A stretch of 64,000 nucleotides of DNA from Terriglobia bacterium (lineage in GTDB: Bacteria; Acidobacteriota; Terriglobia; 20CM-2-55-15), in contig CBDCLE010000007.1 in NCBI GenBank assembly GCA_965218585.1, forward strand, positions 39,241 through 103,240, in the 5' to 3' direction. Below, piece by piece: positions 11,280 to 59,453 of this stretch; the first letter of the stretch is position 1, and each line of letters opens with the position of its first letter. The notes beneath the pieces are model-generated. The model was not told the origin of the DNA. It saw nothing but the letters and a program-made list of their open reading frames with translations, and did no database searches. The position numbers and the translations under genes are program-made.

Positions 11280-12380
11280 CTAATTGCTGGTGAGATCCGT
11301 GTAAACCGCTTCGACGAAGTCTTCCGTCGTCCAGAAGGCGTTGGAGCCGCCGCCCCACCGCACGTCGTAATCGGAGGTCAACCCTTCACTCTGAGTTTGT
11401 TCCAGCGTTAAGCCACGGTTGATCGCATCTGCGATGCGGTCTCGCAGGATCGTCGTCATGTCCCGGTAGTAACCCACGTCGCCGAGGTCGGACATACGCC
11501 CATGTCCGGGGATGATGATCGTGCCGCCTTCAAGGCGGAACTCGGCGAACCCGAGATCCAGGATGTAGTTCAAGGAGTCGATGATTCCCTGGATGCTCCC
11601 GCCACTGTCGAGGTCGACGATCGGATACGACGTCTGAGTGAAGATGTCTCCGGTCGAAATCACATCCGATCTCCGGAACCAGACCATCGAGTCGCCGTCG
11701 GTATGGGCGTTGGGTTGATGGATCATCTGGACGCCTTCACCGTTGAAATAAGGCAGCTTGTAGTACTCACCGATGTAGGTTTCGGTGGGCCACAGCTCCA
11801 AATCCACCTCGGTTTCAGGACTGTCACCAAACCCGTTGCTCATCCGCAAGAGCACGTTTTCGTGCGCCACGATTGACGCGGTTTCGATGACATCCCGGAC
11901 ACTGCCGAGAATATTGCCGGCGGAGATCGTCGCTCCGGCTCGCGCCAATGCCCCGTTGCCTCCGGTGTGGTCGCCATGCCGGTGTGTGTTCAGAACCCAG
12001 CGAATCGGCTTGGGCGGCGCGTTGGTCTCCATGATCAGTTCCAGTGAAGAACGCGAATCGGCTCCGAAGCGACCGTAGCTGGCGCGCTCTGCCGGCTGGA
12101 TTGAAAGCAGGTTCGCGAGGCTCTGGATCACTTCCAGAATGTCATCGCTTCTGCCGGCGAGACCGGTATCCACCAGCAGCGTTCCGTCCAGTCCGACCGA
12201 GGCGGTGGTGTTGCCGCCCGCACCCGCGATCATGTAAATCGGGCCCCTCACGTGGAGCACGTCCAGTTCGGCTGCCTGCGCGTCGGCGCGCTCGGTCAGG
12301 CCGGTCGTGAAGACAACGCCGAGGGCCAAGGCCGTCAGAGCGCCGAGTCCGACCCAATGAGTGAGAATCTTTAGCTTCAT
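11280..12380 (-). CDS. Exported MBL-fold hydrolase (cyclase-like); start codon lies in the IS1595 TSD
   Basis: GAGGN, THRHGDHTGGN, AHTDGD, TGD and IPGHG motifs; signal peptide; paralogue of 28853..29785. Confidence 0.88.
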   Translation of the reverse strand: MKLKILTHWVGLGALTALALGVVFTTGLTERADAQAAELDVLHVRGPIYMIAGAGGNTTASVGLDGTLLVDTGLAGRSDDILEVIQSLANLLSIQPAERASYGRFGADSRSSLELIMETNAPPKPIRWVLNTHRHGDHTGGNGALARAGATISAGNILGSVRDVIETASIVAHENVLLRMSNGFGDSPETEVDLELWPTETYIGEYYKLPYFNGEGVQMIHQPNAHTDGDSMVWFRRSDVISTGDIFTQTSYPIVDLDSGGSIQGIIDSLNYILDLGFAEFRLEGGTIIIPGHGRMSDLGDVGYYRDMTTILRDRIADAINRGLTLEQTQSEGLTSDYDVRWGGGSNAFWTTEDFVEAVYTDLTSN

Positions 12381-12479
12381 GTTTCGGAATTTCCTAGTTT
12401 AAGGTCTTGGCGCAAAGCCTCCACCGTGCGATAATCGTTTTGTTAATAAGCGATTCCACACGATGAAAGGCAAAGCGTC

Positions 12480-13040
12480 ATGAACATTGTACAGGTTTTC
12501 GAGCGGTTCCCCACCCAACAATCCTGCATCAACCATCTTGAGAAAGCCCGCTGGGGCGGAAAGCCCCGCTGCCCATACTGCGGGTCCGGGAATACGGCCC
12601 GGTCGCAGCACCGCCACCGCTGCTACACCTGCAAGACTTCGTTCAGTGTAACGGTCGGCACGATCTTCCACCATACGCACCTTCCCCTTCAGAAGTGGTT
12701 CCTGGCCGTTACGCTGATGCTGAACGCGAAGAAGGGACTCTCCGCACTCCAACTCTCCCGCGATATCGAAGCCAACAAGAACACGGCTTGGCGGATCTCA
12801 ATGCAGATTCGCAAAGCCATGAGGCAATCCGCCCAGCGTAGCCTTCTGACCGGCATTGTCGAGATGGATGAAACCTACATCGGCGGAAAGCCGAGGAAGG
12901 GCGGGCCACCCTCCAAGCCGGGACGCGGCACGAAGAAAACTCCTGTTGTCGGGGCAGCCGAGCGCGGCGGGCGAGTCACGGCGAAAGTGACGAAGAAATC
13001 CTGGTTTCGACTGAAATCAAGCGTGTTTCTATTCCGGTAA
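12480..13040 (+). pseudogene. IS1595 transposase, C-terminally truncated
   Basis: Zn ribbon CPYC..CYTC, GTIFH and VEMDETYIGGK; similarity is lost near 13000, before the later catalytic motifs. Confidence 0.88.
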
Positions 13041-13221
13041 GTCTGCCCTCGACGCCAGCCATCCGGGTCTCCAATGCGATCATGCGATTCTCGACCCCTG
13101 TCATCCTGCCCTGAATATCTCTCAAGAGCGCATAGATATTGTTCGCGGTTTCATTCAGGGTCGCATTCAATGTCTGAATCGATGCTTCCAATGCGGTGAG
13201 CTTTTCTTCCGTTGTTGCCAT
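12976..13221 (-). CDS. Small coiled-coil passenger protein
   Basis: Heptad repeats RMTGVEN/RMIALET/RMAGVEG/RLTGIET/RLISVET; AGGAGA RBS; 3' end overlaps the truncated transposase. Confidence 0.65.
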   Translation of the reverse strand: MATTEEKLTALEASIQTLNATLNETANNIYALLRDIQGRMTGVENRMIALETRMAGVEGRLTGIETRLISVETRISSSLSP

Positions 13222-13251
13222 TGCTTTCTCCTTTCAAGAGAAGAAGCAATC

Positions 13252-13680
13252 TTACCTCAAGGACCCACCGCTTGCCCCCTGGAGAAGACAGTGAACGGCA
13301 GAACCCCGATATATGTAGACTGTCATGCCAAGTGAAATCTCTTCATAATACACACAGGCTTGGCTCCCGATTTTTTCCACCTCGATATATCCAGCACCGC
13401 TAGGTTCGATGGAATAGTGATAGATCGCCTGAGGGTTTCTTGGAGGAATATATATCAGTGGCCGTCCGCCTCGACTTTCCCAAAAATAGTTGTCGCCATT
13501 CTTGACAATCCGAGTGCGGAATTCCAGTGTTTCATCGGCAGTCAGCAGAGCACGATTGGCGCTGTCCACATCTGTAATGACTCTGACATAGGGATGGCCA
13601 TCAAAAATCGTATCGGACTGACCGAGCATCGGCAAGGCGCACGCCAGCACCAAAAGCGCGATCAAAAACAGTCTGTGCAT
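13252..13680 (-). CDS. Exported hypothetical passenger protein
   Basis: ATG 13680 with AGGAGG RBS; signal peptide MHRLFLIALLVLACALPMLG. Confidence 0.65.
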   Translation of the reverse strand: MHRLFLIALLVLACALPMLGQSDTIFDGHPYVRVITDVDSANRALLTADETLEFRTRIVKNGDNYFWESRGGRPLIYIPPRNPQAIYHYSIEPSGAGYIEVEKIGSQACVYYEEISLGMTVYIYRGSAVHCLLQGASGGSLR

Positions 13681-13872
13681 TTGGAACCTCCTGGACGGAT
13701 CGCCAACCGGCCTACACAGGAGGATGAACAGAGAGAGGCTTGTGAAGTAGAATACTTTGTAGGCCGACTCTTCCTCCTGCATAGGACGAGTTGGCTTAGA
13801 GGCCGCTAAGTGCTTGAACACTTGGCGGCTTCGACCCACTTCCGCAAGTCTAGCAGATTTCCTTTAGAGCGG

Positions 13873-14775
13873 TTACTCAAAAGGCAGCTCAATGTTGGTA
13901 TTGATCTTCGGGAATACGCGCTGAAGCCGTCTCCTGAACTCGTTCCACCCACCTTTCGCTTGTACTACGGACTTCATCAGAGCAATAACGCCGTTGAGGT
14001 GTTTTTGAAGTGCCGGATGCCCAATGTCATAGGTGAGCCACTGATGGTGTCGCGCCTTGCGGGCTCCGCGCTCTGTCTTCGGGTTCAGTTGCTCAAGCTC
14101 CTCACGGACGCCAGGGGCCAGCCGGTCCCACACTATATCGTTTGTGTAGATTCCCACTACCTGTGGCCGATTGATTTTCATGCCTTGCCATTCCCAACCG
14201 CGAAGTCTGAAAATCTCCTTGTAGAACACGTCAGGGAATCGCTTGGCCCATTTTGCCTGCTCAGCCAAAAGATACTTATCGAGGATCTCTTGCAGGGCCC
14301 GACGGTCCCTGATCTCTTGGTAGCCAGTCGCTTCATCAATAAGGGCGGCAATTCCGACATGAGCAAGACCACGAATCAAAAGGTGCGCCTGGACCGCAAC
14401 ATGGAGTTGGTTCTTTGTAAGAACCCCGGCTTCTTCGGCGTCTATGAAGACGTTGCATACTGCGGGCAATAATTTGTCGGCGTACCCATAGGCCGAACCA
14501 CCTTTTAACCTGTTGAATTCTATCTGACTCGACGTCACGCTTAACTTGCCTGGAATGAACGGGCTTAGGTTCTTTGCCGTCAGGAATGCGGGCATGTTGA
14601 CGTCAGCGTCATAATACTTTCGCCCCTTAGCCTGTCTCGCCCTCCCCAGGGCCCTCATAAATCCGCTCTGAGTTATCAATCTCCGGCCGTCTTCCAGCAC
14701 AGCGCATGGAATCTCAACCCGGCCGTTCGCGAGAACGATAACTCCCTCATGTGTCGCCTTTGGCAAGCTCTTCAT
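13873..14775 (-). CDS. P63C-domain protein (phage Mx8 p63-like)
   Basis: IPCAVLEDGRRLI, GLAHVGIAALIDEATGYQ, WAKRFPDVFY and HHQWLT motifs; ATG overlaps the stop of the upstream transposase remnant (ATGA). Confidence 0.85.
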   Translation of the reverse strand: MKSLPKATHEGVIVLANGRVEIPCAVLEDGRRLITQSGFMRALGRARQAKGRKYYDADVNMPAFLTAKNLSPFIPGKLSVTSSQIEFNRLKGGSAYGYADKLLPAVCNVFIDAEEAGVLTKNQLHVAVQAHLLIRGLAHVGIAALIDEATGYQEIRDRRALQEILDKYLLAEQAKWAKRFPDVFYKEIFRLRGWEWQGMKINRPQVVGIYTNDIVWDRLAPGVREELEQLNPKTERGARKARHHQWLTYDIGHPALQKHLNGVIALMKSVVQAKGGWNEFRRRLQRVFPKINTNIELPFE

Positions 14776-14890
14776 ATTCGCAGCCCTCTGTCGATGGTGC
14801 GGTCGAAGGCTTCCCACGGGGCCGCGTCGCGCAGGTTGTAGCGGTAGCAGAACTCATCCACATACTTCTGCAGGTGCCGACGCCAGACCC
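14772..14890 (-). pseudogene. C-terminal fragment of a second IS1595 transposase
   Basis: Translation GVWRRHLQKYVDEFCYRYNLRDAAPWEAFDRTIDRGLRI* contains the HLxxYxxEFxxRxN IS1595 motif. Confidence 0.8.
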
Positions 14891-15119: not shown

Positions 15120-15986
15120 CTACTCTTCTTCCTCTTCCTGAAACTGGCTCAGACTTTCCGCGATCTCTCCCACGCGGATCTGCTGTTGGAATTCAGGGTA
15201 TATCGTCTCGACGCCACCGCGCGCGGCATGCAGCGGTACCTGGAACCGCCAGGAATACTCGTTCCCTTGCGGATGATCGCCCTGCAGGTAATGCGGTACT
15301 TCGCCCTTTTCCCGAATGATTTCAGTCGTTGCGTAGCAGGGGTAGGGCGACATCGTCGTTGTCGGTGCGTTCCGGTATTCGGTGGTCCGAACGAGAGGCT
15401 CGGTCAGGTACAGTGGATCGTAGACGATGGTCGTTAAGCTCATGATGTTGTCGCGCCGACGGACATAGCGGATCACTTCGGCTTCGTCGCTTGCGGGAAG
15501 GCCGTTGCGACGGATGATGTTTTCTTTCACGTGCGTCGTCCGAATCCGCAGCGCATTGCCCACCCACTGGCCGGTCGAAAAGCCGTTCCATGTGTGAGGC
15601 GCATTTTCGGATGGATGCGGACGGCCATCCATGTAGATCCAGGTTTCGGTCCCACGAACAGTGTTCCAGCGCCACGCCGTGGTGTCGCGTGTTACCGGAT
15701 CAATCACGCGCTCCAGCTGGATCCGTGATGGGTCGCGGTTGACGTAGGCGATTCCGTGTGGCCGGCACTGCCATTCGGGCAGCGTGATCCAGGACGCGCT
15801 CCAGGTGTCACCCTTCATGCGGGCCGCGTCGTTGACCGGAAGGCCCATGTATTCGCCGGCAAACGGGTGGCCTTCGAAATTGTCTTCCGAACGAAAGGGC
15901 GTCCAGTCGCCCGAGAGATCAATCTGAGCAAAGGCCGGCGCGGAAAGCAGCAAGACGGCCCCTGCGATCGTAAGGATCGATTTCAT
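15120..15986 (-). CDS. Exported Cys-pair hypothetical protein, subfamily A
   Basis: Signal peptide; DLSGDW, GLPVNDAAR, QCRPH, DGRPHP, GFSTGQW and DPLYLTEP motifs; paralogue of 29826..30767. Confidence 0.8.
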   Translation of the reverse strand: MKSILTIAGAVLLLSAPAFAQIDLSGDWTPFRSEDNFEGHPFAGEYMGLPVNDAARMKGDTWSASWITLPEWQCRPHGIAYVNRDPSRIQLERVIDPVTRDTTAWRWNTVRGTETWIYMDGRPHPSENAPHTWNGFSTGQWVGNALRIRTTHVKENIIRRNGLPASDEAEVIRYVRRRDNIMSLTTIVYDPLYLTEPLVRTTEYRNAPTTTMSPYPCYATTEIIREKGEVPHYLQGDHPQGNEYSWRFQVPLHAARGGVETIYPEFQQQIRVGEIAESLSQFQEEEEE

Positions 15987-16035: not shown

Positions 16036-16890
16036 TCAGAAACCCTGTCTGCCTGGGATAAGTCGTCCACCCTCCTGGGGGATGTAGACCTCGCAGGGCC
16101 GTGGGTCGAATTTGGAATCGACCGCTTCCTTCTTGAAACCGTAGCTGCGGACATACGTGCCCGTCAGGTAGACCGGGTCATCCACCATGAGCGTCACCAG
16201 CAGATAGGTGTTGCCGTCCGGTTCATCAACGACGTTCCAGTACTCTCTCATCGTCGCCTGATCGCTGTAGGGTACTCCGTCGAGTGTGAAGTAATACCCC
16301 GGAATAACGTTGGAGGTGTTGATCGACAACTCACCACCGGGATTTCGCGCAGCGACAGGGGCGCCAAAGCCGCCCCGGCCCTGGGGCCGCCCTGCGAAGA
16401 CCCATTGGGCCACTGAGTGTCCCTGTCGGCTGGGCGCTCCCGGTTCGCGTGCACTGGGTCCAAAGTGGAGCATCCGCGTCTGCATCCCGTTGTCGGTGTC
16501 GACCTGCAGCGTGTTCGGATCGGCCCAGGTGATGTTCAACCGGGTCGGAACGCGCATGATCCCCATGGCTCCATAGGATTTACACAGGTCCCCCGCGGCG
16601 ATATCCCCCTCGGGATCCCAGCTATCGGCCATGTTTCGGCCCTCGATATTGAGTGTGACGCCGGTTCGGCCGTACTCACCCTTCACGCCCACGCCCATTC
16701 GAAAACGCCAGTCCTCGGTCACCATCGAGACCCAGTAGCCGGTCGCGTCGATCGGGGCAACGGTCTGGGCGGGGGGTGGGGGACCGCCCTGCCCTCTGCC
16801 TCGTTGAGCTTCCAGGCTGCTTGATGCAACCAGAATCATCCCTACAGCAGCAAAAACTGCCACGGTTTTGCGTCGAATCACATGCTTCAT
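16036..16890 (-). CDS. Exported Cys-pair hypothetical protein, subfamily B
   Basis: Signal peptide; DATGYWVS..EDWRFRM, CKSYGA, QGHSVAQW, GVPYS, DPVYL and C-terminal PC; paralogue of 28080..28856. Confidence 0.8.
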   Translation of the reverse strand: MKHVIRRKTVAVFAAVGMILVASSSLEAQRGRGQGGPPPPAQTVAPIDATGYWVSMVTEDWRFRMGVGVKGEYGRTGVTLNIEGRNMADSWDPEGDIAAGDLCKSYGAMGIMRVPTRLNITWADPNTLQVDTDNGMQTRMLHFGPSAREPGAPSRQGHSVAQWVFAGRPQGRGGFGAPVAARNPGGELSINTSNVIPGYYFTLDGVPYSDQATMREYWNVVDEPDGNTYLLVTLMVDDPVYLTGTYVRSYGFKKEAVDSKFDPRPCEVYIPQEGGRLIPGRQGF

Positions 16891-17642: not shown

Positions 17643-20600
17643 ATGAAGCGAGTATTCACTACTCTGTTTTTCGCGACGTTCATTCTGGCGTTGACGTGCA
17701 ATCCAGCCTGGTCGCAGGCTACTGCACAGATCAACGGCACGGTGAGCGATGCGACCGGTGCTGTGTTGCCCGGTGTGGACATCACGGCCACCCAGACGGA
17801 CACAGGCATCGTTCGCTCGGCCGTCACTAACGAGACCGGATCCTACGTGTTGCCGAATCTGGCATTGGGTCCGTATCAGCTCGAGGTGTCGTTGCCGGGC
17901 TTTCAGACCTTTGTCCAAACCGGAATCGTATTGACGGTCAACGACAATCCGGTGATCAACGCGGCCCTGCAAGTGGGCCAGGTGGCGCAGACGATCGAAG
18001 TTCAGGCCACCGCGGCGCTGGTCGAGACCCGCTCGGTCGGGATCGGCACTTTAATAGAAAATGAGCGCATTCTGGAGCTTCCGCTCAACGGCCGCAACGT
18101 GGCTGAGTTGATCGAGCTGTCCGGAGGCGCCGTCGAAACCAGGGACCAGGACAGCAGCCGTTATTTCGGCGGGACGCCCATCGTCGTCGTCGGCGGGGGT
18201 CTGGGCGTCAGCACGGATGTCACGCTGGACGGCGCGGTCCATACCGATCGATTTACCCAGGGCGGCTTTCCACTGCCGTTTCCGGATGCGCTGCAGGAGT
18301 TCCGCGTGGAGACCAGCGGCCTCTCTGCAGAGAACCGGACCTCGGCGTCGGTCGGAGCCGTGACCAAGTCGGGGACCAACGAGGTCCACGGCAACGCGTT
18401 CTGGTTCGTACGGAACGACCTGTTTAACGCGCGGCCCTATTTTTCTCCGACAGAAAGCACGCTCAAGCGCAACCAGTTCGGGGGCACCGTCGGCGGGCCG
18501 ATCGTGCAAAACAAAGTGTTTTTCTTTGCTGGTTATCAGCGGACGACATTGCGCTCGGACCCGGGTACCCGGCGCGCGTTCACGCCGACCGCCGCCATGC
18601 GGAGCGGGGACTTCACAGCTTTTGCTTCACCGGCCTGTGGTCGTAATAATTTGAGCTGGGCACCCAATGGCGTCGAGCTCTTCAACAACAACGTCATCGA
18701 TCCGGCGAACTTCTCTTCCATCTCGAATGCCATCCTGGCCGACGTTCCGGTCTCGGCCGATCCATGTGGGGAGGTTTTCTTTGGCATCATCAACGCTCGG
18801 GATGACGCCCAGGCCATCGGGCGGGTCGATTGGCAGGCCAGTGACAACCACTCCATCTTCGGGCGGTTGATGTGGGCCACCACCGACATCGCGCCAGGTT
18901 ACATACAGGGCAACCTGCTGACCGCGAACCAGGCGTCGCGAGACAACTTCTTCCAGGCCTATACGCTGGGTTCGACGTATCTGATCGGGGCCAACACGGT
19001 CCAGTCGGCCCGGTTGGTGGTCAATCGAGTCTCGGTCAAGCGCCTGGGCCAGGACACGGGTTTTGACCCGACACGGCTTGGAATTAATGTCAACCATTAC
19101 ATTCCCTACCTTCAGATGAGCATCTCGGACGGCTTCACTTCGGCCGGTCCTGTGGCCCTGGATGGCCAGACCCATACGACCGAGTTCCAGTTGACCGAGG
19201 ATCTGAGCATGATCCGGGGCGACCACCAGATATCGGTTGGCGGGACCGTCGTCCACGGCCGGTCGAACACGTATTCGAACGTCCGTTCCTCCTCCGACTA
19301 CAATTTTGATGGCGGGAACACCGGCGAGGGTTTGGCTGACTTCATGGTCGGAGCCCTAGGTCGTCTCCGTGTGAGTGCCCCGAACCGGTTCTTCCGGAAG
19401 AAAACGCTTCTCGGAATCTACGGGACCGATTCGTGGAGAGTGACGCCGAATGTGACTCTCAACTATGGTCTGCGCTGGGAGCCGGACATGCCCATGACCG
19501 ATGTTCAGGACATCGGTATTTTCAATTTCGATATCGACCGGTTCCGTCAGGGCATCGGGTCCAACACCTACCCCCTGGCCCCGGCCGGCTATGCGGCGCC
19601 CGGGGATCCGGGTTTCCCCGGTAACACGGGACGGCACGCACAGTGGGGGCAGCTCTCACCCCGCTTCGGACTGGCATGGGACGTGAGGGGAGACGGGCGC
19701 ACCTCGATCCGGGTGTCCGGCTCGATGACCAAGGAATCCATGCCGCTGCAGTTTGCGGCCGGGATTGCCGCCACGGCGCCTCCCTGGGCGGCGGGTGTGG
19801 CGATCACGGATCCGGTCGGCGGGTTCGCCGATCCCTACCTGGGCTTCCCCGGGGGCGATCCGTTCCCGATCGGCGACTTGACGACGGTCGCCTTTCCGCG
19901 AGGCACCGAGATTGTCAGCGTTCCCTACGATTTCCCCAACCCGACCGTCTACGGATGGAACGCCGCCGTCCAGCAGCAGATCGGGCAGGACTGGATGGTG
20001 TCGGGAAGCTACATCGGCACGCAGCTGATCCACCTGTGGATCCAGGGACCGGGCAATCGCGGCATTTACTTCCCCGGCACGGCGAACGCCAGCGGGGAGT
20101 GCACGGCCCAGGGCTTTACCCTGACCGGCCTCAGCGCGGGCGCCACCTGCTCCACATCGCGCAACACCTTCGACCGCCGCGTCTTGAGCCTGATTGATTC
20201 CTCGAAAGCAGTTTTCGGAGCCGTCGGGGCTATGGACGCCGGGGGCACACAGTCCTATCACGGACTGGTCCTCTCCCTCCAGCGTCGGGCCGCCACGGGC
20301 GTGACGGTCAACATGAACTACACCTGGTCGCATTGCATCACGGACGATATTCGGGGCGGTGACGGGGTTGGAAATCCGTTCCCGGGCACCACCTATACTC
20401 ATTTCAACGACCGGAACGCCGACCGCGGCAATTGCCTGGCGGACCGCCGGCACATTGTCAATCTGACTTCAGTGGCCCGGACTCCCGAATTTGAAAACCC
20501 CACGACGCGCAAGGTCCTATCGGGCTGGCAGTTGTCGGGGATCTTCAGAATATCCTCCGGGCAACCCCTGGACATCCAGAATAACTCGGGGCCTTCGGGC

Positions 20601-20972
20601 GACAGGGCGCTGGCCGACCAAGATAGTCAGCGGCCGAACCAGATCCTCAGCAACGTGTACGGGTCCGATGGCGGCCCGGGCACAAACTTCCTCAATCAGG
20701 CTGCGTTCGCTCCCCAGGCGATCGGTACACTCGGTGACGTGGGCAAAAACAGTGTCCGGGGGCTCAAGAACTGGGCCTTGGACCTGTCGCTTTCGAGAAC
20801 GTTCGACTTCGCCGAGTCTCAGTCGCTGGAGTTCCGGGCCGAGGCCTATAACATCACCAACAGCTTCCGGGCGAACAATCCCGAGAGACGCATTCTCAGG
20901 AGCACTTTCGGCCGGATCCGCAGTGCTCAGGATTCGCGGATCCTGCAGTTCGCGCTCAAGTACGCCTTCTAG
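17643..20972 (+). CDS. Oar-type TonB-dependent transporter with an N-terminal carboxypeptidase-regulatory-like domain
   Basis: GTVSDATGAVLPG, LPLNGRN, DALQEFRV, TKSGTN..HG, NQFGG, YGLRWE and C-terminal LQFALKYAF; AGGAGG RBS. Confidence 0.93.
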   Translation: MKRVFTTLFFATFILALTCNPAWSQATAQINGTVSDATGAVLPGVDITATQTDTGIVRSAVTNETGSYVLPNLALGPYQLEVSLPGFQTFVQTGIVLTVNDNPVINAALQVGQVAQTIEVQATAALVETRSVGIGTLIENERILELPLNGRNVAELIELSGGAVETRDQDSSRYFGGTPIVVVGGGLGVSTDVTLDGAVHTDRFTQGGFPLPFPDALQEFRVETSGLSAENRTSASVGAVTKSGTNEVHGNAFWFVRNDLFNARPYFSPTESTLKRNQFGGTVGGPIVQNKVFFFAGYQRTTLRSDPGTRRAFTPTAAMRSGDFTAFASPACGRNNLSWAPNGVELFNNNVIDPANFSSISNAILADVPVSADPCGEVFFGIINARDDAQAIGRVDWQASDNHSIFGRLMWATTDIAPGYIQGNLLTANQASRDNFFQAYTLGSTYLIGANTVQSARLVVNRVSVKRLGQDTGFDPTRLGINVNHYIPYLQMSISDGFTSAGPVALDGQTHTTEFQLTEDLSMIRGDHQISVGGTVVHGRSNTYSNVRSSSDYNFDGGNTGEGLADFMVGALGRLRVSAPNRFFRKKTLLGIYGTDSWRVTPNVTLNYGLRWEPDMPMTDVQDIGIFNFDIDRFRQGIGSNTYPLAPAGYAAPGDPGFPGNTGRHAQWGQLSPRFGLAWDVRGDGRTSIRVSGSMTKESMPLQFAAGIAATAPPWAAGVAITDPVGGFADPYLGFPGGDPFPIGDLTTVAFPRGTEIVSVPYDFPNPTVYGWNAAVQQQIGQDWMVSGSYIGTQLIHLWIQGPGNRGIYFPGTANASGECTAQGFTLTGLSAGATCSTSRNTFDRRVLSLIDSSKAVFGAVGAMDAGGTQSYHGLVLSLQRRAATGVTVNMNYTWSHCITDDIRGGDGVGNPFPGTTYTHFNDRNADRGNCLADRRHIVNLTSVARTPEFENPTTRKVLSGWQLSGIFRISSGQPLDIQNNSGPSGDRALADQDSQRPNQILSNVYGSDGGPGTNFLNQAAFAPQAIGTLGDVGKNSVRGLKNWALDLSLSRTFDFAESQSLEFRAEAYNITNSFRANNPERRILRSTFGRIRSAQDSRILQFALKYAF

Positions 20973-21344: not shown

Positions 21345-22170
21345 ATGGATATGGTATTGCGTCAAGCAGTGACGATTGCATCGGGCCGTACAACGTTTAA
21401 AGTGGCCATCACGAGTTCTCTCGTGATGGTTGTTTTGATGGTTGGCGCCCCGAACCTGGCGGCCCAGTCGCCGGCCGAACTGGGTGAGCTGCCAGATGTC
21501 AGTGGGACCTGGCGGATCGTAAGCCGGAGCAAGCCGCCCGCGTGTGCTCCCGGGTTCGTAATCGAAGAAGACGAGCGGCAGCTGCCGCGCTACGGCTGCA
21601 GGTTGGACTGGTCCGACCACATCAACGCCAGGACCCGGGCGTGGTTCCGATTCCATGACGAACCGGTAGAAGGCAAGTTCTACTGTGTGCCCGAATCCAT
21701 CCCCAGCACTCTGGCGCGTGTCCAGCCAGTACGAATAACCCGGCGAGGCGACAGAGTGGTTATAGAGTCTGAGGGGAGCATGGCATACAACGTTATTCGC
21801 ACTGTCTGGACAGACGGCCGTCCCCATCCGCCGCCGGGCGACGTCGCCTACTACGGACATTCGATCGGCCGTTATGAAGGCGATGCATTGATCGTCGAGA
21901 CGCAAAACTTCACGTTTGATCCCAACGGAATGGGACTATCAGGGGCAGGTTCCCTCGTCTTGGGCAAAGCGCCTCACCGAGCGTTATTCCCTCGTCGGGC
22001 CGGACCACCTGCGGATGGAGCTGACTGTAGAAGACCCCGTGTTTCTGACGCGGCCCTATACCGAAACCTTTGAATACGAACGGACGGACCAGGAGGTCCG
22101 GCGGATTAACGACTGCGATCCCGGTAGCCGCCGCCGCTCCGCTCGGGATGCTTCCGCCCAAGTATCGTGA
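21345..22170 (+). CDS. Exported Cys-pair hypothetical protein (frameshift near 21930)
   Basis: PDVSGTW, YCVP, DGRPHP and GHSIGRYEGDAL in one frame; VPSS, EDPVFLTRP and NDC in frame 21916..22170. Confidence 0.72.
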
Positions 22171-23466: not shown

Positions 23467-23481
23467 ACGTTTTTCCCGGAA

Positions 23482-28079: not shown

Positions 28080-28856
28080 TCAATACGCCGTGCACGGCTC
28101 AGGATTCCAGCCCGAATCGTCGGCCTCGCGTTTGTAATCCGTAGTCGTCACAAACGGAACGGCCAGATATACCGGATCCTCGACGAAGGTGGTAATGGTG
28201 AACCATTCAGTACCATCGACCGCGGTAAAAGTATCGAAGTATTCGGTTACGGTCGTCTGGTCGCTATACGGAACACCGTTCTTGCGCAGGTACCCCGCCA
28301 GCAGATTCGAAGTCTCCACTATCAAAGTTTTGCTTTGAGTACCGATTCGGGGTTCGGTGCCTGCGCCGTTGAGACCGAAAGGAGGCGGACCCACACCCGA
28401 ATCCCACTGCGCAGCCGAATGGCCCTGGCGACTTGCTTCTCCCGGCTCTCCAGGATTGAACTGGAGCAAACGCGTCTGCATGCCGTAGTCTTTTTCAATC
28501 TTGAGCGTGTTGTCGTCTTCCCAGCTGACCTGAATCCGGCCCGGCATTCGCATCAGTCCCGGCGCACCGTATGCGATACATGCAAGTCCGGCGGCCTCAT
28601 CTCGTGCCGGATCCCAGTTGTCGACGCTGTCACGGCCGATGGAGCGAAGAGGGATGCTGTGTGCGTCGCCTCTGAGTGGCGTGACCATCCGCCAACGCCA
28701 GTCCTCCATGATGGGAGAGACCCAATTACCGGTGAGATCGGTCGGGGCCGCCTCGCGCGGGGAGTCCTGCGCCTGGGCCGTCGGAGCAAAAGCCAACGAT
28801 ACAAGCAACGATAAAAACAGTGTTGCGGTCAAAAAGTCAGTCCTTGAGGTCGTCAT
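28080..28856 (-). CDS. Exported Cys-pair hypothetical protein, subfamily B
   Basis: DLTGNWVS..EDWRWRM, CIAYGA, QGHSAAQW, NGVPYS, EDPVYL and PEPC; start overlaps the MBL stop (ATGA). Confidence 0.8.
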   Translation of the reverse strand: MTTSRTDFLTATLFLSLLVSLAFAPTAQAQDSPREAAPTDLTGNWVSPIMEDWRWRMVTPLRGDAHSIPLRSIGRDSVDNWDPARDEAAGLACIAYGAPGLMRMPGRIQVSWEDDNTLKIEKDYGMQTRLLQFNPGEPGEASRQGHSAAQWDSGVGPPPFGLNGAGTEPRIGTQSKTLIVETSNLLAGYLRKNGVPYSDQTTVTEYFDTFTAVDGTEWFTITTFVEDPVYLAVPFVTTTDYKREADDSGWNPEPCTAY

Positions 28857-29785
28857 TGCGCGTTCACCAAGCTTTGATGGATAGCCTCGACAAGTCCCTC
28901 CGCGGTAACGAAGCTATTATCGTTGACGAATTCGGGGTCGTAATCCCGTGAGGGTCCGTCGGCCTGAATCTGGGCTAACGACATCCCGCGATCGATCATG
29001 TCCTGAATGCGTTCTGAAATGATCACGACCATGTTGCGATACTCGGTCACATCGGACTCATCGGCGAGACGCCCGTGTCCCGGGATCACGTAGGTGCCGC
29101 CCTCCGAGTTCTTCGCGGGTACGGCCAACTCCATAATGTGGTTCAGCGCGTCGATCAAACCCTGGACCGTCCCGCCTCTCTCGACGTCAATGAACGGATA
29201 GCCGTTCGGCACGTAAATATCTCCTGTGCTGATGACGTCCGACCCCCGAAACAGTATGATCGAGTCGCCGCCCGTGTGCGCGGCCGGTTCATGGTAGATA
29301 AAAATGGGTTCGCCATTGAAGTGTATATCCCTGCCCGGCCCGTCGTAGCTGTCGAGCGGCAGGGCGCCTTCCGGAACCGCGTCCGGGTCCTCTCGCTCGA
29401 GCGCAACCATCCCAACCAAAGTGTTGAGATGCGCGATGATCGAAAATGGTTCTATGCTGGTGCCGGGAGCCAGTTGGCGAAACCGTGCGTTCCCGCCCAC
29501 GTGATCCGAGTGCATATGCGTATTGACCACGTAGCGTAGGGGGCCGTCCGTCAACGTCCCCACGGCTTCCAGTATTTTGTCTGCAAGCTGTGCGAATTGA
29601 GAATCCACCAGGAACACACCGTCCGGTCCGACCTGCACCGTCGTGTTCCCTCCGGCGCCGACCAACATGTAGACGTTGCCCTTGACATGTCTGAGTCGAA
29701 TCTCAACGTCATCCAGGTTCGCCTGACCCCACAGGACCGGGCTTGTCAGGGACAGAACAGCCAGAAAAAAGACGAACTTTTTCAT
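28853..29785 (-). CDS. Exported MBL-fold hydrolase (cyclase-like)
   Basis: GAGGN, THMHSDHVGGN, AHTGGD, TGD and IPGHG; signal peptide from ATG 29785. Confidence 0.88.
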   Translation of the reverse strand: MKKFVFFLAVLSLTSPVLWGQANLDDVEIRLRHVKGNVYMLVGAGGNTTVQVGPDGVFLVDSQFAQLADKILEAVGTLTDGPLRYVVNTHMHSDHVGGNARFRQLAPGTSIEPFSIIAHLNTLVGMVALEREDPDAVPEGALPLDSYDGPGRDIHFNGEPIFIYHEPAAHTGGDSIILFRGSDVISTGDIYVPNGYPFIDVERGGTVQGLIDALNHIMELAVPAKNSEGGTYVIPGHGRLADESDVTEYRNMVVIISERIQDMIDRGMSLAQIQADGPSRDYDPEFVNDNSFVTAEGLVEAIHQSLVNAQ

Positions 29786-29825: not shown

Positions 29826-30767
29826 TTAGTCATCCCGCTGACCCAAAGAGCCCAACACACATGAGGCGTTGTTCTCAAGGCAGGCGCAATACCGGGTGCA
29901 CATCTGCGGTTGATCCTCTGGCAGCACCAGGCGATCGCGATACTCCGGATAGATCGTTTCACTGCCGCCACGCGCACCGTCTAACGGCAATCCATACCAG
30001 TCGGCCACCTGGGTCAAAAACGGGTTCTCTCCAGGCAGGTAGTGAGGCACGTCGTTGACCTCGCCCGGCAGCTCGTCGACATATTCGCAGATGTACCGGC
30101 CCAGTCGTTGTCCGGGTTCGAGCCTCCAGGTCTGAGAGCGAACCATCGGCTCCGTCAAAAATGCCGGATCCTCTATCGTCATCGTGATGGTCAGGAAGTC
30201 GCCGTGACGGACCCAATGATCGGTGAATGTCGCCAGTTCACTGCGTGGCAAGCCGTTGCGCCGAAGATAACTCTTCTTGAGGTGTGTTGTGCGGACGTTG
30301 AGCATATTCTGGTCCCAGCTGCCGGTCGAGAACCCCGCCCACGTGTGCGGTTCCAGATTGTCGGGATGCTCGCGCCCATCGAGCCAGATCGTGCGGTCGG
30401 TCTCGTATGAGTTTATGCGGAGCTTAATCGCAATCAGACGCTGCGTTAACGGATCCCTTATCTCGTCTACGCGCATATTGGCCAGAGCGCGCATTCTAAA
30501 ATCGCCCCCGTGGGGCCGGCACTGGTATTGCGTCACTGCCGATGTCCGGGCGGGGTCAAAGCTATCGGCCTGAAGGCGCGCCGCGTCGTTGATGGGTATC
30601 CCGGCATAGTCGCCGGTTTCATCCCCGGCAACACGCACAGCGTGCTCTTCATGATAGACAGGCGCCCAGTTTCCAGAAAAGCTGACCTGTGCAATAGCTG
30701 TCCCGGAGAAAGTGACCGTTAAAGCCATCATCCAAGCACAACGTTTTATATCCAGAATCTTACGCAT
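29826..30767 (-). CDS. Exported Cys-pair hypothetical protein, subfamily A
   Basis: FSGNW, GIPINDAAR, QCRPH, DGREHP, GFSTGSW and EDPAFLTEP; Cys-rich tail CTRYCAC...C. Confidence 0.8.
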   Translation of the reverse strand: MRKILDIKRCAWMMALTVTFSGTAIAQVSFSGNWAPVYHEEHAVRVAGDETGDYAGIPINDAARLQADSFDPARTSAVTQYQCRPHGGDFRMRALANMRVDEIRDPLTQRLIAIKLRINSYETDRTIWLDGREHPDNLEPHTWAGFSTGSWDQNMLNVRTTHLKKSYLRRNGLPRSELATFTDHWVRHGDFLTITMTIEDPAFLTEPMVRSQTWRLEPGQRLGRYICEYVDELPGEVNDVPHYLPGENPFLTQVADWYGLPLDGARGGSETIYPEYRDRLVLPEDQPQMCTRYCACLENNASCVLGSLGQRDD

Positions 30768-30858: not shown

Positions 30859-31338
30859 TTACTCGTCGATGTGCCCGACCCGTTGTCCCGAACTGCGGCT
30901 GTTGGACGGCCGCGTGTGTCTTTCTAGGTGGTACTTATCGCCGCCGATGTCGCCGTTGGGATCTCCCCAGCCAAAGCCGTCGGACGGCCGTAAGATTGTC
31001 CGCATACGCAAGATCTTGCGGTCGGCCATGTTAAGTCCGGGGTTCCCACTGATGATGATGTGGTCCCCGGGTCTCAGCGAAGCCCGGGTCAGGCCCTGGC
31101 TTCCCAGTGGGCCCGCCCCATCCCACTCGACGCCCCAGCGCACCATCTCACCGTTTTCGTCGGGAGCCAGCACATGGATCCAGGAGTGTGGATTGCGTAA
31201 GAGGAACTGGACCAGCTGCCCTTCGATCTCGATCGAACTATCCTCATCGTAGAGGGAGGTGAAAGAATGGTGAGCATATACTGTCGACCCGAATACCAAC
31301 ATGCCAACAACCACCAGAGTCATGCAATTGAATTTCAT
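30859..31338 (-). CDS. DUF6152-like exported protein
   Basis: Signal peptide ending VYA, then HHSF; NPHSW, W.VE and L.PGD motifs. Confidence 0.78.
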   Translation of the reverse strand: MKFNCMTLVVVGMLVFGSTVYAHHSFTSLYDEDSSIEIEGQLVQFLLRNPHSWIHVLAPDENGEMVRWGVEWDGAGPLGSQGLTRASLRPGDHIIISGNPGLNMADRKILRMRTILRPSDGFGWGDPNGDIGGDKYHLERHTRPSNSRSSGQRVGHIDE

Positions 31339-31457
31339 CCGGCTTCCTCCTCGAAGAGGGAAGTTATCTTACAGCCTTCCGCAGGATAATGCTGAATTGT
31401 ACCGTTCTTCTGCCCGCCTCTCTACTGATTTATTGTTAGCAGGTTTTAGTATCGCGG

Positions 31458-31583
31458 ACGTTCAACATCACGGACACCGCGCGGCCGGACAATCCTGAAA
31501 ACACGGTCACGAGTGGGAGCTCCGGACTGGTCCGCCACGTGCAGGATGCGCGTGTCATGCAGTTTGCTCTGAAGTACGTCTTC
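31458..31583 (+). pseudogene. Orphan C-terminal fragment of an Oar-type TonB-dependent transporter
   Basis: TFNITDTARPDNP..VQDARVMQFALKYVF parallels the C-terminus of 17643..20972; CAA sits where the stop would be. Confidence 0.75.
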
Positions 31584-31605
31584 CAAATTGTCAGTGCTTT
31601 AGTTA

Positions 31606-31634
31606 AGGGCGGCGGGGTTTAACCCCGCCGCTCT
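31606..31634 (+). terminator. Terminator hairpin after the transporter remnant
   Basis: GCGGCGGGGTT-T-AACCCCGCCGC stem. Confidence 0.65.
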
Positions 31635-31944
31635 ATTTCGTTTCCAACCGCCCTCGCATCGCACTTCACGCCCGAGGGACACGTCTGTCCCCAGAATCGC
31701 CGGCAGTACATACCGTACCTGATGTGGGTAGGTGTTCGGGCTTCAAGTGTCGTGTTGTCAAATATTTAACTCCGAACCTTCCCGACCGTATTGACACCTC
31801 GCTTCGGCCTCGGCTAACTGAATGAGATACGAAGAATCGTCCGTGTAAACCAAAGTGCAGACGAAAGCGATGCACTCACGGACGACCCGACGGTCGTGGC
31901 AGTGTGTCCCGCCGTCATTAATTAATGTGGGTAAGGAGGATCCT

Positions 31945-32477
31945 TTGAAAAGAATTTTCATGTTAATCGCGATCTGCTCCCTCGCCAGTGGTATGGCCTT
32001 TGGCCAGGCGACGGGGCAGCTCAGCGGTCTTGTGACAGACCAGACCGGGGCGTTGTTGCCCGGCGTGGATGTGACACTGACGCAGGCCGATACTGGCGCG
32101 GTACGAAGTGCCATAACCAACGAGACCGGAGCGTATGCGTTCCCGGCGTTGCAGCCAGCCGTTTACGTGCTGGAAGTGTCTCTGCCGGGATTCCAGACCT
32201 TCAGGCAGACCAGCGTCGAATTGCAGGTTGGTGCCAATCTGGTGATCGACGCGTCGTTGCAGGTCGGGCAGGTCGCCCAGACGATCGAGGTCGTGGCGAA
32301 CTCGGAACTCCAGGTGGAGACTCGAGCGATGGCCATCTCCGAGGTCATCGAAAACGAACGGATCATCGAGCTGCCGCTGGCCGCCCGTGACGTGACCTCG
32401 CTGCTCACCCTGGCGGGCCAGGGCGCATGGCGGGAACACCGGCGAGGGTTTGGCTGACTTCATGGTCGGAGCCCTAG
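31945..32477 (+). pseudogene. N-terminal fragment of an Oar-type TonB-dependent transporter, truncated at IS1182
   Basis: AAGGAGG RBS and TTG start; GLVTDQTGALLPG...IELPLAAR; ends in a 52-bp segment identical to 19309..19360. Confidence 0.85.
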
Positions 32478-33132
32478 GAGTCTGCGCGGCAGAAGGACCG
32501 AAATTGGGCGGGAATGGATGGAAGATAGGGCATGCCACGAACTTACCGAGCCTATATTCCAGAACAGAGCCTGCTGATGCCACCGTCGCTGAGCGATTGG
32601 CTGGCCGAAGATCACCTGTCGTACTTCATATCGGATGCTGTGGACGCGATGGATTTGAGCGGGTTCGAACAGAGGCATGGAACTGACGGGCCTGGCAATC
32701 AGGCCTTCGATCCGCGGATGATGGTGAAGGTGATGATCTATGGGTACGGGACCGGAGTGTTTTCATCCAGGAAGATCGCAGCGAAGTTGAGAGAAGATGT
32801 GGCGTTCCGGATGTTGGGAGCCGAGAACTTTCCCGCGCACCGAACGATCTCGGATTTTCGCAAACTGCATCTTGAGGAGTTCGGGAAGCTGTTTGTGCAA
32901 GTGGTGATGATGGCGCGAGAAGCGGGTTTGGTGAAGATGGGGACGGTAGCGGTGGACGGAACCAAGATGCGGGCGAATGCGAGCAAACGCAAAGCGATGA
33001 GCTATCAACGCATGAAGAAGCAGGAGACCGAGTTGGGTGAGCAGATTCGGGATCTGTTGAACCGGGCGACCGCGACCGATGAGGACGAAGACCAGCGTTA
33101 CGGCAAGGACCGGCGCGGAGACGAACTACCCT

Positions 33133-47913: not shown

Positions 47914-48296
47914 GCCGAAGCATCTGCGCCAGACCAAATGGAGCAGCGAACTGATCCCGGGCGCACGTTCAGCGCGCAATATTTGCGCATGCAGCCTGAC
48001 CACCTTGACGTGCAGTGAAAGGCCATGGTATATCCACACACGTTTCGGAGTTGATACATAGCGGACAGCGTTCGACATGCGGGAACATAGGTGGTGCAAA
48101 ATTTGCCCGATGTAGAGCGAGCCCACGTAAATCCGAACCGACTGTTGTAGGAACCCCTTCCCTGCTTCTTGCGGACAGGCCAGAACACGTTTTGGGATAT
48201 ATCGTGTTCGCGAGAAATTGGGGGCAGGTAGACGTAACTGACCAAAGATGCCGGCAGATAGACTGGCGTTAGCGGCTATGAAATTGGAGGCTAGAA

Positions 48297-52357: not shown

Positions 52358-52377
52358 TACAGCCTCCCTGGACTGAA

Positions 52378-57645: not shown

Positions 57646-57810
57646 TCCGAACTCCTTCTTAACAAATATGAACGAGTGCTGAGGCTGGCTGGTTAAGGCT
57701 GAGCCCCGCAATCCTAGCGCACGCTTGGGGAGGACGTCAAGAGCTCGGGCCCAAGCTGTTAACTGCTAAAGTCAACCGGAATAGATTGATGGAGGTTCGG
57801 GAGACAGTTC

Positions 57811-57844
57811 CCGGCAAAATCTGCGTTAATTCAAATTACTGGCG
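57811..57844. promoter_or_regulatory. Repeated intergenic motif, copy 1
   Basis: CCGGCAAAATCTGCGTTA.TT.A..TTAC.GGCG, also present at 59697..59730. Confidence 0.6.
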
Positions 57845-57951
57845 GTCCGACCGAGGCCGAAGACCCATGCTCGAAGCCTGGCTAAAGTTCAGGTTTCGAG
57901 AGGCCCTTGGCCGACAGACCCGGGCCTCTCCGCGTCCCGAGGCGTGTCTTC

Positions 57952-58431
57952 CTACTGGCCAGCGGCCTCTGCTTCGACACTGGTGGTAAATCCCTGTTCC
58001 ATCCAGCCCTTCCAACGTTCGATCGTTCGATCGTCTCCCTGGCAGCCGGCGTCACTGGGGTTGAGAATCGAGCCGTCGTTCAATTGAACCCAACCCATAG
58101 CCCCGGCGGGTCGACCGTCCCGCAAGGGACAGTACATGAACGTCAAGACGTCGCCAGGCTCAAAGGTCGATCCGGTGATGCCCCTGCCCAACAGAGCAAC
58201 CGGGCCGGACGCTTCAAAGCCCCAGAGTGTGCTCTCTCCAGCTTCGCCCTCGACGTTCACATAAAGCCACGCATGGGGGTTGTTGAATGCCCAGCGAACG
58301 ACTTCACCGGAAACAAGGACCTGATTGCCGCGATCGAACTGCGAAAAGGAATGGTGGGCCTCGACTGTTGTCGCGAACAGGAGGCCAATGGCCAGCACCG
58401 TTAAGATCAACTTCTTCATCATTATCTCCAT
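57952..58431 (-). CDS. DUF6152-like exported protein
   Basis: Signal peptide ending VEA, then HHSF; NPHAW, WGFE, PGD and PLRDG motifs. Confidence 0.8.
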   Translation of the reverse strand: MEIMMKKLILTVLAIGLLFATTVEAHHSFSQFDRGNQVLVSGEVVRWAFNNPHAWLYVNVEGEAGESTLWGFEASGPVALLGRGITGSTFEPGDVLTFMYCPLRDGRPAGAMGWVQLNDGSILNPSDAGCQGDDRTIERWKGWMEQGFTTSVEAEAAGQ

Positions 58432-58475
58432 ATAGACAAATTGCGTTGAGACTACTCTTTTTCTATCCGGACGTT

Positions 58476-59453
58476 TCAGTTCGTCGGTAATTCCGTGTTG
58501 TAAATCGGATCGCGCGACTGGCCGGGAAGATCCGGGAACAGGCCCGATCCACGTACGTCCACGTAGCCTTCCTCTCCGGGCAGAAAGAAGCCGGTTGAAC
58601 CGTCGGCGTCCTGACGGGCGTTAGTAGCGCCGATGCATTCCCAATGCAAGACACGGTGACCCGCCTCTTCAATAGCTGTTCCCTGCCGAAAGGCGAAGAC
58701 GGCATGGATCGGTTTTTGAAGGGCGAACGAGTCGTAGAACGTCGCCTGAACTTCGAGTCTGAGGGTGCCATCCGGGTTGTTCTTCAGCTCCCAGATTTCC
58801 ACAGATTCGAACTGGTTGCTGGTCAGCGGCTGGTTTCGGGTGTACCCGGCTGGAAGCAGATCGACGGTATTCGTGATGAGCCGGTCTCCGTCCCAGAATC
58901 CTATGATGTCGCCATACCAGGAGTGGGTCCCGTAGACGTTACTGTGCTCGGCACCGATATAAATCCGGCGGATCCCGTTGCCAACGTCATTGATCTGCCA
59001 GGTCTGATCCGGGAGGTTGATGAACTCGTGAGTATAGGCCTGCCCCAGGTAGCGCGGATAGCCAGGCGCTTCGCACTGGGTTATACGATCGTATGTCGTA
59101 CCTCGCTCGGCCACGATCTCCCGGGTTTCCCTGAACTGCTGCTCATAGGCAGGGGTCAGTACGCCTTCGCGGATTTCCCCCTGGTCCAGAAATATCTGAT
59201 TTCTCGTGGTGCCCGCCGGCTGCCATAAACCGCTCCATTGCGGGACGGTCTCCATCGTGTGCTCGGTGCCGCCGTTGGCCTGCTCCAACAAATACGCATA
59301 GTGTTCCTCCGAAGTCTCAAACTCCATCGGAGGCAGAACAACTTCCAGTTGGGGACCTCCCCGTTGTGCCATGACTGTCGATGGAATGACGGTCAGAAGC
59401 AAAAGAACGAGACCGATCCAAGACAGGCCTTTGCTGAGTTTCATCGTCTTCAT
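58476..59453 (-). CDS. Exported Cys-pair hypothetical protein (divergent member)
   Basis: WSGLW, QCEAPGYP, RRIYI, WYGDIIGFWDGDRL and HWEC motifs. Confidence 0.75.
   Translation of the reverse strand: MKTMKLSKGLSWIGLVLLLLTVIPSTVMAQRGGPQLEVVLPPMEFETSEEHYAYLLEQANGGTEHTMETVPQWSGLWQPAGTTRNQIFLDQGEIREGVLTPAYEQQFRETREIVAERGTTYDRITQCEAPGYPRYLGQAYTHEFINLPDQTWQINDVGNGIRRIYIGAEHSNVYGTHSWYGDIIGFWDGDRLITNTVDLLPAGYTRNQPLTSNQFESVEIWELKNNPDGTLRLEVQATFYDSFALQKPIHAVFAFRQGTAIEEAGHRVLHWECIGATNARQDADGSTGFFLPGEEGYVDVRGSGLFPDLPGQSRDPIYNTELPTN

Follow-up and report, generated by a model that had tools for sequence, protein, structure and literature searches.

What function could be served by a set of exported proteins which recurs along a single stretch of DNA from a Terriglobia bacterium? 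The stretch examined, hereafter called the window, comprises 64,000 nucleotides (nt) of contig CBDCLE010000007.1 (positions 39,241-103,240 of the forward strand; assembly GCA_965218585.1). A preliminary description of the window had distinguished six exported proteins sharing a common signature and distributed in three loci, in association with metallo-β-lactamase-fold (MBL) hydrolases, DUF6152 proteins and an Oar-type TonB-dependent transporter (TBDT). The corresponding genes occur at the positions then given, as confirmed by listing and translation of the open reading frames (ORFs), and, judging from their sequences, all six proteins are members of one superfamily with three subtypes, called A, B and c. 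The conserved core of the module is the A-MBL-B unit, and not the transporter.

The A-MBL-B unit

In locus 1, the genes coding for B1 (16036..16890, minus strand; 338 bits with the B-family hidden Markov model, HMM), A1 (15120..15986, minus strand; A-family HMM 436 bits) and the exported MBL-fold hydrolase M1 (11280..12380, minus strand) are divergent from an intact plus-strand TBDT gene, which is followed by the subtype-c gene 21345. This arrangement had been recognised previously, except for an insertion at 12480..14817, which splits A1 from M1 and contains a fragment of an IS1595-type transposase gene (PF12760/PF12762), an ORF of 195 aa and a gene with a P63C domain (PF10546). Locus 2, also on the minus strand, contains the gene set already attributed to it, i.e., DUF6152 (30859..31338), A2 (29826..30767; A-family HMM 378 bits), M2 (28853..29785) and B2 (28080..28856; B-family HMM 433 bits), divergent from TBDT fragments. 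The start codon of most likely use in M2 is the ATG at 29785 and not the GTG at 29977, which gives a signal peptide beginning with MKKFVFF, and the overlap of the M2 stop with the B2 start as ATGA, at 28853-28856, is read directly in the sequence. Locus 3, on the same strand, consists of the subtype-c gene 58476 (58476..59453, starting at Met23 of a longer ORF) directly upstream of a second DUF6152 gene (57952..58431).

The same genes were looked for elsewhere by scanning one genome per species, which yielded 590 pattern matches including 529 relatives of A; the best 77 loci were kept. All are labelled as Acidobacteriota (among others Vicinamibacterales, Bryobacteraceae and Terriglobia), apart from one Bifidobacteriaceae and one "uncultured bacterium". 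Their genes were called roughly from codon usage and then clustered, raw clustering of ORFs being swamped by spurious high-GC ORFs, and gene order was scored as a pattern count. In 72 of the 77 loci, A is followed on one strand by an MBL, either separate or fused, then optionally by DUF6152 (present in 22 loci) and finally by B. The trio is thus kept together, as had been noticed within the window, but in a canonical order rather than the free shuffling that had been supposed. In the genome to which the window belongs, a census of six-frame ORFs (4.55 Mb assembly, scored with purpose-built HMMs) gives 27 A, 18 B, 22 MBL of the partner type and 75 DUF6152 ORFs; both A and B occur within 3 kb of 16 out of the 22 partner-type MBL ORFs.

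Gene fusions point in the same direction. Among the matches listed, 110 of the 120 longer homologues of A also contain the PF00753 domain, and an A-MBL fusion of 628 aa is encoded by a single ORF of this genome (C2:21437-23323). Similarly, three A-B fusion proteins of about 500 aa each were retrieved. A complex prediction performed with purpose-built alignments for the cross-locus pair A1 (locus 1) and B2 (locus 2) gave a score of 0.82, versus 0.00 for the best of three controls; the mark used for such scores is attained by 116 out of 157 complexes of known structure, as opposed to 2 out of 215 mismatched pairs. The contacts agree to at least 70% among the three runs, with a predicted local distance difference test (pLDDT) of at least 84 for the partner. 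The predicted interface associates the conserved C-terminal tail of A (residues 261-267) with a conserved segment of B (residues 46-58, E-D-W-R-W-R-M). This model, which like those of the barrels and of DUF6152 discussed below is a prediction, supports the binding of A to B without demonstrating it, in agreement with the heteromer previously imagined for the two proteins. Since A-MBL and A-B are found fused in other organisms and an A:B interface is predicted, A, MBL and B very probably form one complex.

The MBL partners M1 and M2 share 38% identity (E 5e-74). Both score above the PF00753 gathering score (52.9 and 49.9 bits, respectively, cut-off 22.7) and possess the five metal-ligand motifs of the MBL superfamily, in the HxHxDH/H/D/H pattern: NTHRHGDH, AHTDGD, GD and PGHGR in M1, and NTHMHSDH, AHTGGD, GD and PGHGR in M2. 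In approximately half of 81 members compared in the MBL family, the His residues of metal site 1, namely the two that come first in HxHxDH and a third one, are replaced together while the ligands of site 2 are kept, and this joint loss suggests that two functional classes exist. Tandem units in loci labelled Vicinamibacterales, e.g., L003, combine one canonical MBL (NTHxHxDH...AHTDGD) with one devoid of site 1. The nearest solved sequences are remote (best E 2e-6). An identity as class B β-lactamase (B1/B2/B3) was rejected on NCBIfam scores of 19-36 bits for cut-offs of 100-240, and an identity as SoxH-related relay hydrolase (TIGR04558/TIGR04559) on scores of 33-68 bits for cut-offs of 280-300.

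The barrel proteins and DUF6152

The relationship between the six exported proteins is readily perceived within subtypes, A1 and A2 sharing 37% identity (BLASTP E 4.5e-62) and B1 and B2 41% (E 2e-61). Between A and B, identity decreases to 24-26% (E 5e-8 to 3e-13), and the comparison of the two profiles gives a probability of 99.9% (E 1e-31). The proteins encoded at 21345 and 58476 exhibit weak BLASTP similarity to the other members (E 3e-4 to 0.013), which agrees with the divergence earlier ascribed to 58476, and are recovered by an HMM of subtype c (c-HMM) built from 33 paralogues located elsewhere in the genome, window copies being excluded, with E values of 5.6e-59 (HMM positions 12-183 of 273) and 2.7e-36, respectively. 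A frameshift in the 21345 gene (21345..22170, plus strand) had escaped attention. The frame breaks near 21911-21952 and the C-terminal piece, extending to about 22170, lies in another frame (c-HMM E 1.8e-25), tblastn reading frame 3 and then frame 1; on this evidence the gene would be either a pseudogene or the product of a sequencing error. A sodium:solute symporter gene at 23200-24973 (minus strand) looks frameshifted too, its last transmembrane segments being encoded in another frame beyond about 23620. Together with the TBDT remnants of locus 2, the two frameshifts suggest either gene decay or indel errors in the assembly.

Across the six-way alignment, a G-x-W motif, both Cys residues, G135, L146, T150 and S166 are invariant, and G-x-W and the Cys pair remain so in wider alignments of A and of B. 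An N-terminal G-x-W is the lipocalin signature. Invariant polar stretches occur in A (W-Q-C-R-P-H, D-G-R-P-H, H-x-K and R-R-N-G) and in B, where they correspond to the E-D-W-R-W-R-M segment mentioned above.

None of the six proteins has a match in Pfam or NCBIfam at E ≤ 0.01, and neither the A nor the B profile finds a chain among the PDB sequences at E ≤ 1. Looking up B2 and the 58476 protein in the ESM Atlas returned unnamed clusters only; the closest clusters bearing a name (DUF6152, for 25% of the members, and DUF3471) score 0.77-0.78, below the level of a lead. A word search of the literature found no paper on the barrel families, which such a search cannot exclude, the papers returned dealing with siderophores and resistance, and none using the word "DUF6152". 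The module therefore deserves the qualification of uncharacterised that it had received, and the superfamily of barrels combines a large size with a complete lack of annotation. With the B profile alone, 3306 clusters are collected at 50% identity (634 at E ≤ 1e-30) and no fewer than 7798 at 90% identity. In the present genome, for which a rough call gives about 4000 genes, 115 ORFs match the c-HMM, a rough count of the superfamily, and about 56 c-type ORFs are without any MBL of the partner type. Out of 24 genomes belonging to the same family, 17 contain B, which was found in none of 16 genomes representing other families of the class. The largest cluster of the genome, a 23-kb array at C9:15978-39246, contains six A-MBL-(DUF6152)-B units, with four A genes in tandem. 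With respect to expression, contigs of 151-459 nt from two metatranscriptome runs of one study are 93-99% alike to parts of B2, M2, A2 and the DUF6152/A2 junction; they give only a hint, DNA carry-over being possible.

According to structure prediction, the barrels would be exported β-barrels with two Cys residues and an FABP/lipocalin-like (calycin) fold, about twice the usual size. The A1 model (AlphaFold2, 47-sequence alignment, pLDDT 82) comprises approximately ten strands. Foldseek places FABP, CRBP and SAHS chains in its top rows (best E 1.2e-3, probability 1.00), and VIA-align superposes residues 18-208 of the model onto nanoKAZ (Z 8.0, root-mean-square deviation 3.3, 115 residues aligned) and CRBP4 (Z 7.9). 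The VIA-align rows at Z ≥ 5 are mostly calycin-type barrels, with nitrobindin, lipocalins and several calycin-fold enzymes ranking lower. The predicted A1 model thus displays, with moderate scores, the closed antiparallel barrel of 8-10 strands typical of the calycin superfamily, and the six proteins fall outside the curated lipocalin/FABP sequence families.

DUF6152 is represented in the window by two proteins scoring above the PF19649 gathering score of 27, with 68.3 bits in locus 2 and 85.5 bits in locus 3. Invariant features of 23 DUF6152 sequences are an A-H-H located at the predicted signal-peptide cleavage site (A-x-A|H-H), an N-P-H motif and a Glu residue. The position of A-H-H implies that the mature protein would begin with His-His; in locus 2, the signal peptide ends with VYA and the mature N-terminus reads HHSF. 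The locus 3 protein, with its N-terminal His-His, was modelled by AlphaFold2 (23-sequence alignment, pLDDT 85) as an oligonucleotide/oligosaccharide-binding fold (OB-fold), with a VIA Z of 7.8 to SSB, a Foldseek E of 2e-3, and matches to the OB-folds of SSB, PriB and LysRS. The listed matches are nucleic-acid-binding OB-folds. Metal binding is deduced from the invariant His-His, N-P-H and Glu, which make the metal-binding partner formerly suggested a plausible one.

The census, for which the DUF6152 HMM was built from short ORFs only (fusion proteins otherwise bringing in the barrel domain), places 60 of the 75 DUF6152 ORFs at 1 kb or less from a barrel ORF, the zone so defined amounting to 6% of the genome. 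The pair of c and DUF6152 genes seen in locus 3 recurs across the genome, and 11 full fusions of DUF6152 with c occur. Pfam matches over the cut-off amount to 70 in this genome versus none in any of 14 control genomes, and, out of 151 genomes sampled across the phylum, DUF6152 was found in 14, the present one included. It is strongly indicated, in part by modelling, that DUF6152 is an exported OB-fold protein paired with, or fused to, barrels.

Transporters and neighbouring genes

The intact TBDT of locus 1 (17643..20972, plus strand, 1109 aa) exhibits the Oar-type architecture, CarboxypepD_reg followed by OMP_b-brl_4, with PF13620 (76 bits) and PF25183 (577 bits, profile positions 1-838 of 838); it has no NCBIfam match. 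In locus 2, tblastn with this protein recovers three remnants (31452..32503, plus strand), which refines the earlier mention of remnants. The first (31452-31583) corresponds to the C-terminal end, the second (31996-32418) to part of the N-terminal region and the third (32429-32503) to a short internal piece; they are truncated by transposase genes present from 32532 onwards. Comparison with the window TBDT gives 724-1012 bits for 19 ORFs adjoining A-MBL-B units (18 related loci) and for three further ORFs of this genome, the remaining full-length Oar-type TBDTs of the genome reaching 84-214 bits; by these scores, the transporters located beside A-MBL-B units form one subfamily. Its four members present in the genome are all found at 10 kb or less from such a unit, and most units are without this transporter nearby, which indicates that the transporter depends on the module rather than the module on the transporter. 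The comparison initially made with polysaccharide utilization loci (PULs) holds for this specific accompaniment and fails for the larger part of the units. In addition, a PUL proper would combine a SusC/RagA TBDT with a SusD-like lipoprotein, whereas the TBDT remnant scores 17.9 bits for a TIGR04056 cut-off of 368 and no SusD-like family occurs among the Pfam matches of the window. In a locus labelled Vicinamibacterales (L006:8047-8306), arrays of 24-nt tandem repeats directly follow the TBDT stop and precede a divergently oriented gene for an aromatic-acid transporter of the major facilitator superfamily (MFS).

Genes accompanying the unit in the 77 loci most often code for an FAH-family hydrolase (32 loci), a bicupin (26), an MFS transporter (23), a pyrroloquinoline quinone (PQQ) dehydrogenase (16), a carboxylesterase (15), a SnoaL-like protein (12) and a protein resembling arylmalonate decarboxylase/maleate isomerase (10). 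A representative bicupin scores 531 bits with the gentisate 1,2-dioxygenase equivalog, above the cut-off of 442, and the MFS neighbour most resembles the aromatic-acid/H+ symporters, without reaching the score set for them. At least eight gene arrangements were distinguished, the genes being located downstream on the same or the opposite strand, upstream, or between the TBDT and the unit; this variety argues against mere inherited synteny, with the reservation that the genomes are related and the counts not independent. In the present genome, two of three bicupin genes and two of four FAH genes are situated no more than 10 kb from a unit, in a zone representing 9.7% of the genome, and contig C1 carries on one strand three TBDT genes, FAH, bicupin, DUF6152, A, MBL, DUF6152 and B. 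These recurring gentisate-pathway neighbours, unseen before, lend support to the non-sugar small molecule that had been proposed as substrate.

The genome contains 22 genes resembling PQQ-dependent dehydrogenases, 13 of which lie within 10 kb of c-DUF6152 genes (zone 25% of the genome), several of them being adjacent; in related loci, cytochrome c and PQQ dehydrogenase come after a second A-MBL-B unit. Single-domain MetE-like (Meth_synt_2) genes adjoin c-DUF6152 pairs, five out of seven in the genome being located at 10 kb or less, and the same family occurs in 5 of the 77 related loci. One copy stands beside locus 3 (56542-57711, minus strand), along with genes coding for NmrA-like and short-chain dehydrogenase/reductase proteins. 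According to Pfam, the genes flanking the other window loci code for an esterase, a formamidase-like protein, a symporter, an aminotransferase and an aldehyde dehydrogenase. Further hydrolases occur close to the loci (9392-11203, 50807-52381 and 59930-60949), namely a BD-FAE/Abhydrolase_3 esterase and three MBL-fold genes, which fall outside the A-MBL-B partner subfamily. At least seven transposase genes or fragments are scattered over the 64 kb (7512-7919, 12480-13040, 32532-38542 and 46449-48018), belonging to the IS4/5, IS1595, DUF772, Mutator (two), DDE_Tnp_1 and Mu-like/IS21 IstB types, and two of these elements interrupt the module loci. A 16S rRNA gene, the only RF00177 match, is located at C7:27970-29497, about 10 kb upstream of the window, and is 79.5% identical to the E. 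coli 16S, a value which does not assign the phylum; the names carried by the nearest homologues of the module proteins make Acidobacteriota probable.

Possible function and comparison with known systems

Because of the predicted fold, the fusions and the gene neighbourhood, the module may be read as a periplasmic multi-subunit hydrolase processing imported aromatic or hydrophobic compounds, a reading whose substrate and chemistry are conjectural and to which we grant slightly less than an even chance. The barrels would bind a small molecule of hydrophobic or aromatic nature and hand it over to the MBL, whose binuclear metal site would carry out the hydrolysis. DUF6152 could bind a metal through its N-terminal His-His, the His of N-P-H and the Glu residue, and serve either as a metal donor or as a metal centre for the barrel or the enzyme. 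In the loci provided with a TBDT, this dedicated Oar-type transporter would carry the substrate across the outer membrane, and an aromatic-acid product might subsequently be conveyed by the aromatic-acid/H+ MFS transporter to gentisate 1,2-dioxygenase, the FAH-family hydrolase and the maleate-isomerase-like protein, a step suggested by the related loci and by contig C1 rather than by the window. The kit is multiplied in the genome, presumably with one variant per substrate class.

A number of observations weigh against this reading. The founding Oar protein is required for protein secretion and not for import (PMC6434023). Only 4 of the 22 partner-type MBL ORFs have a TBDT of the subfamily within 10 kb, and 39 of the 77 loci are devoid of any TBDT in the available stretch, 26 having one upstream on the same strand. 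No gentisate gene occurs beside the three loci of the window, and the counts of neighbours are drawn from related genomes, whose loci are not independent. To judge from their motifs, the MBL copies lacking site 1 may not be classical binuclear hydrolases. The fold matches of A1 form a consistent list of moderate scores (Z ≤ 8), and the evidence from RNA is limited to short metatranscriptome contigs of a close relative. Finally, the many invariant His, Arg, Asp and Lys residues of the barrels resemble those of an enzyme more than those of a passive binder.

Such residues would be accounted for if the barrels themselves were the catalysts, cofactor-free or metal-assisted, acting on phenolic or hydrophobic substrates, with the MBL as a second catalytic subunit or as a scaffold. 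The calycin fold is known from enzymes such as phenolic acid decarboxylase, spirocyclases and the Oplophorus luciferase, and enzymes also occur among the fold matches of A1 (nanoKAZ, Z 8.0; OlmO, Z 6.0; AncPAD31, Z 4.7). The absence of the site-1 His from half of the MBLs and the numerous c-type ORFs deprived of a partner-type MBL fit equally well. We nevertheless consider these catalytic barrels unlikely, though worth keeping in mind, as none of the catalytic motifs of known calycin enzymes was recognised in them, part of their conserved residues is located at the predicted A:B interface and not in a pocket, and both MBLs of the window retain a full metal site.

The invariant His-His, N-P-H and Glu of DUF6152 could also be assigned to a periplasmic metal-handling network, in which DUF6152 and the barrels would deliver metal to the exported MBLs and the PQQ dehydrogenases, the TBDT importing a metal chelate. 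CusF, for the His-rich OB-fold of DUF6152, and ZinT, which is lipocalin-like, for the barrels, are possible points of comparison; the MBL partner is metal-dependent, and the proximity of 13 of the 22 PQQ-dehydrogenase-like genes to c-DUF6152 genes agrees with this proposal. On the other hand, 75 copies of a chaperone per genome are difficult to justify for metal supply, the theme of the neighbourhood is aromatic catabolism and not metal homeostasis, and no metal regulator or exporter was seen in the window, which renders such a network improbable.

Another function for the transporter would be the export of the neighbouring A, B and MBL proteins, which would then, for example, capture or hydrolyse an extracellular substrate. 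The Oar protein of Myxococcus is required for the secretion of the protease PopC (PMC6434023), the window TBDT shares its architecture, a dedicated TBDT subfamily adjoins the module, and signal peptides occur on A, B, MBL and DUF6152. Secretion through the TBDT cannot be general, most A-MBL-B units being without one nearby, and the inner-membrane aromatic-acid transporter and cytoplasmic gentisate genes are in keeping with uptake; export therefore appears quite improbable. As for the view that no functional system exists and that tandem duplication and mobile elements merely shuffled paralogues in a decaying genome, which the transposases, frameshifts and gene remnants of the window and large tandem arrays such as C9:15978-39246 might evoke, it has hardly any chance left and is close to refuted by the same gene order in 72 of 77 loci from other genomes and the common fusion proteins, to which the A:B complex predicted with clean controls may be added.

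A bolder reading, improbable as it is, would be that the barrels and DUF6152 constitute a new periplasmic metalloenzyme, in which DUF6152 would supply a histidine-brace-like metal centre, formed on its free N-terminal His-His, and the calycin barrel the substrate chamber. The c-DUF6152 pairs and fusions would represent diversified oxidative or hydrolytic catalysts for aromatic and other recalcitrant small molecules, and A-MBL-B a three-subunit branch fed by its own TonB transporter. Soil Acidobacteriota are abundant and poorly understood degraders, and the hydrolase reading, if true, would offer a testable entry point into their uptake and processing of aromatic or plant-derived compounds, and would for the first time assign a function to DUF6152 and a class of substrates to Oar-type transporters.

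Compared with known proteins, the barrels come closest to the calycins (FABP/CRBP, SAHS, nitrobindin and lipocalins), which are their best structural matches and with which they share a predicted antiparallel barrel of ten strands. They differ from them by the lack of sequence-family membership, a size about two times larger with long conserved insertions and tails, their export, the conserved Cys pair and the many invariant charged residues, and by the prediction that A and B act as an enzyme-bound heteromer. In the alkylsulfatase SdsA1, an MBL domain is combined with an SCP-2-like domain. The A-MBL-B unit recalls this association of a binuclear MBL catalytic unit with a separate module binding hydrophobic molecules, which consists here of a separate or fused barrel; its binding part, in contrast, would be a calycin barrel and not SCP-2, and Pfam identifies no alkylsulfatase domains. 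Histidine-brace copper proteins such as lytic polysaccharide monooxygenases (LPMO) and CopC-like proteins hold copper by an N-terminal His and a second His within an immunoglobulin- or cupredoxin-like fold. In DUF6152, the His that follows the predicted cleavage site is invariant, but the predicted OB-fold differs from the folds of LPMO and CopC.

The best NCBIfam matches of M1 and M2, TIGR04558 and TIGR04559, are SoxH-related zinc metallohydrolases of a "quinoprotein relay system", and the likeness extends to the PQQ dehydrogenase found after A-MBL-B units in 16 of the 77 loci and the cytochrome c found in 7; the window MBLs, scoring far below the cut-offs, are not members of these families. 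With Oar from Myxococcus xanthus, the transporter has in common the architecture, an N-terminal CarboxypepD_reg domain and a large barrel; Oar is linked to protein secretion (PMC6434023), whereas the context of the module suggests the import of small molecules. The closest parallels in organisation are the PULs and the system of DdvT, a TBDT of Sphingobium sp. SYK-6 involved in the uptake of a lignin-derived aromatic dimer (PMC6874591). As in these systems, a dedicated TBDT adjoins processing and catabolic genes; here, it is of the Oar type and not of the SusC type, no SusD-like gene was identified, and the predicted periplasmic A-MBL-B complex has no counterpart in either of them. The fold types and the logic of a transporter coupled to periplasmic processing are familiar, whereas the components themselves and the way they are assembled are not.

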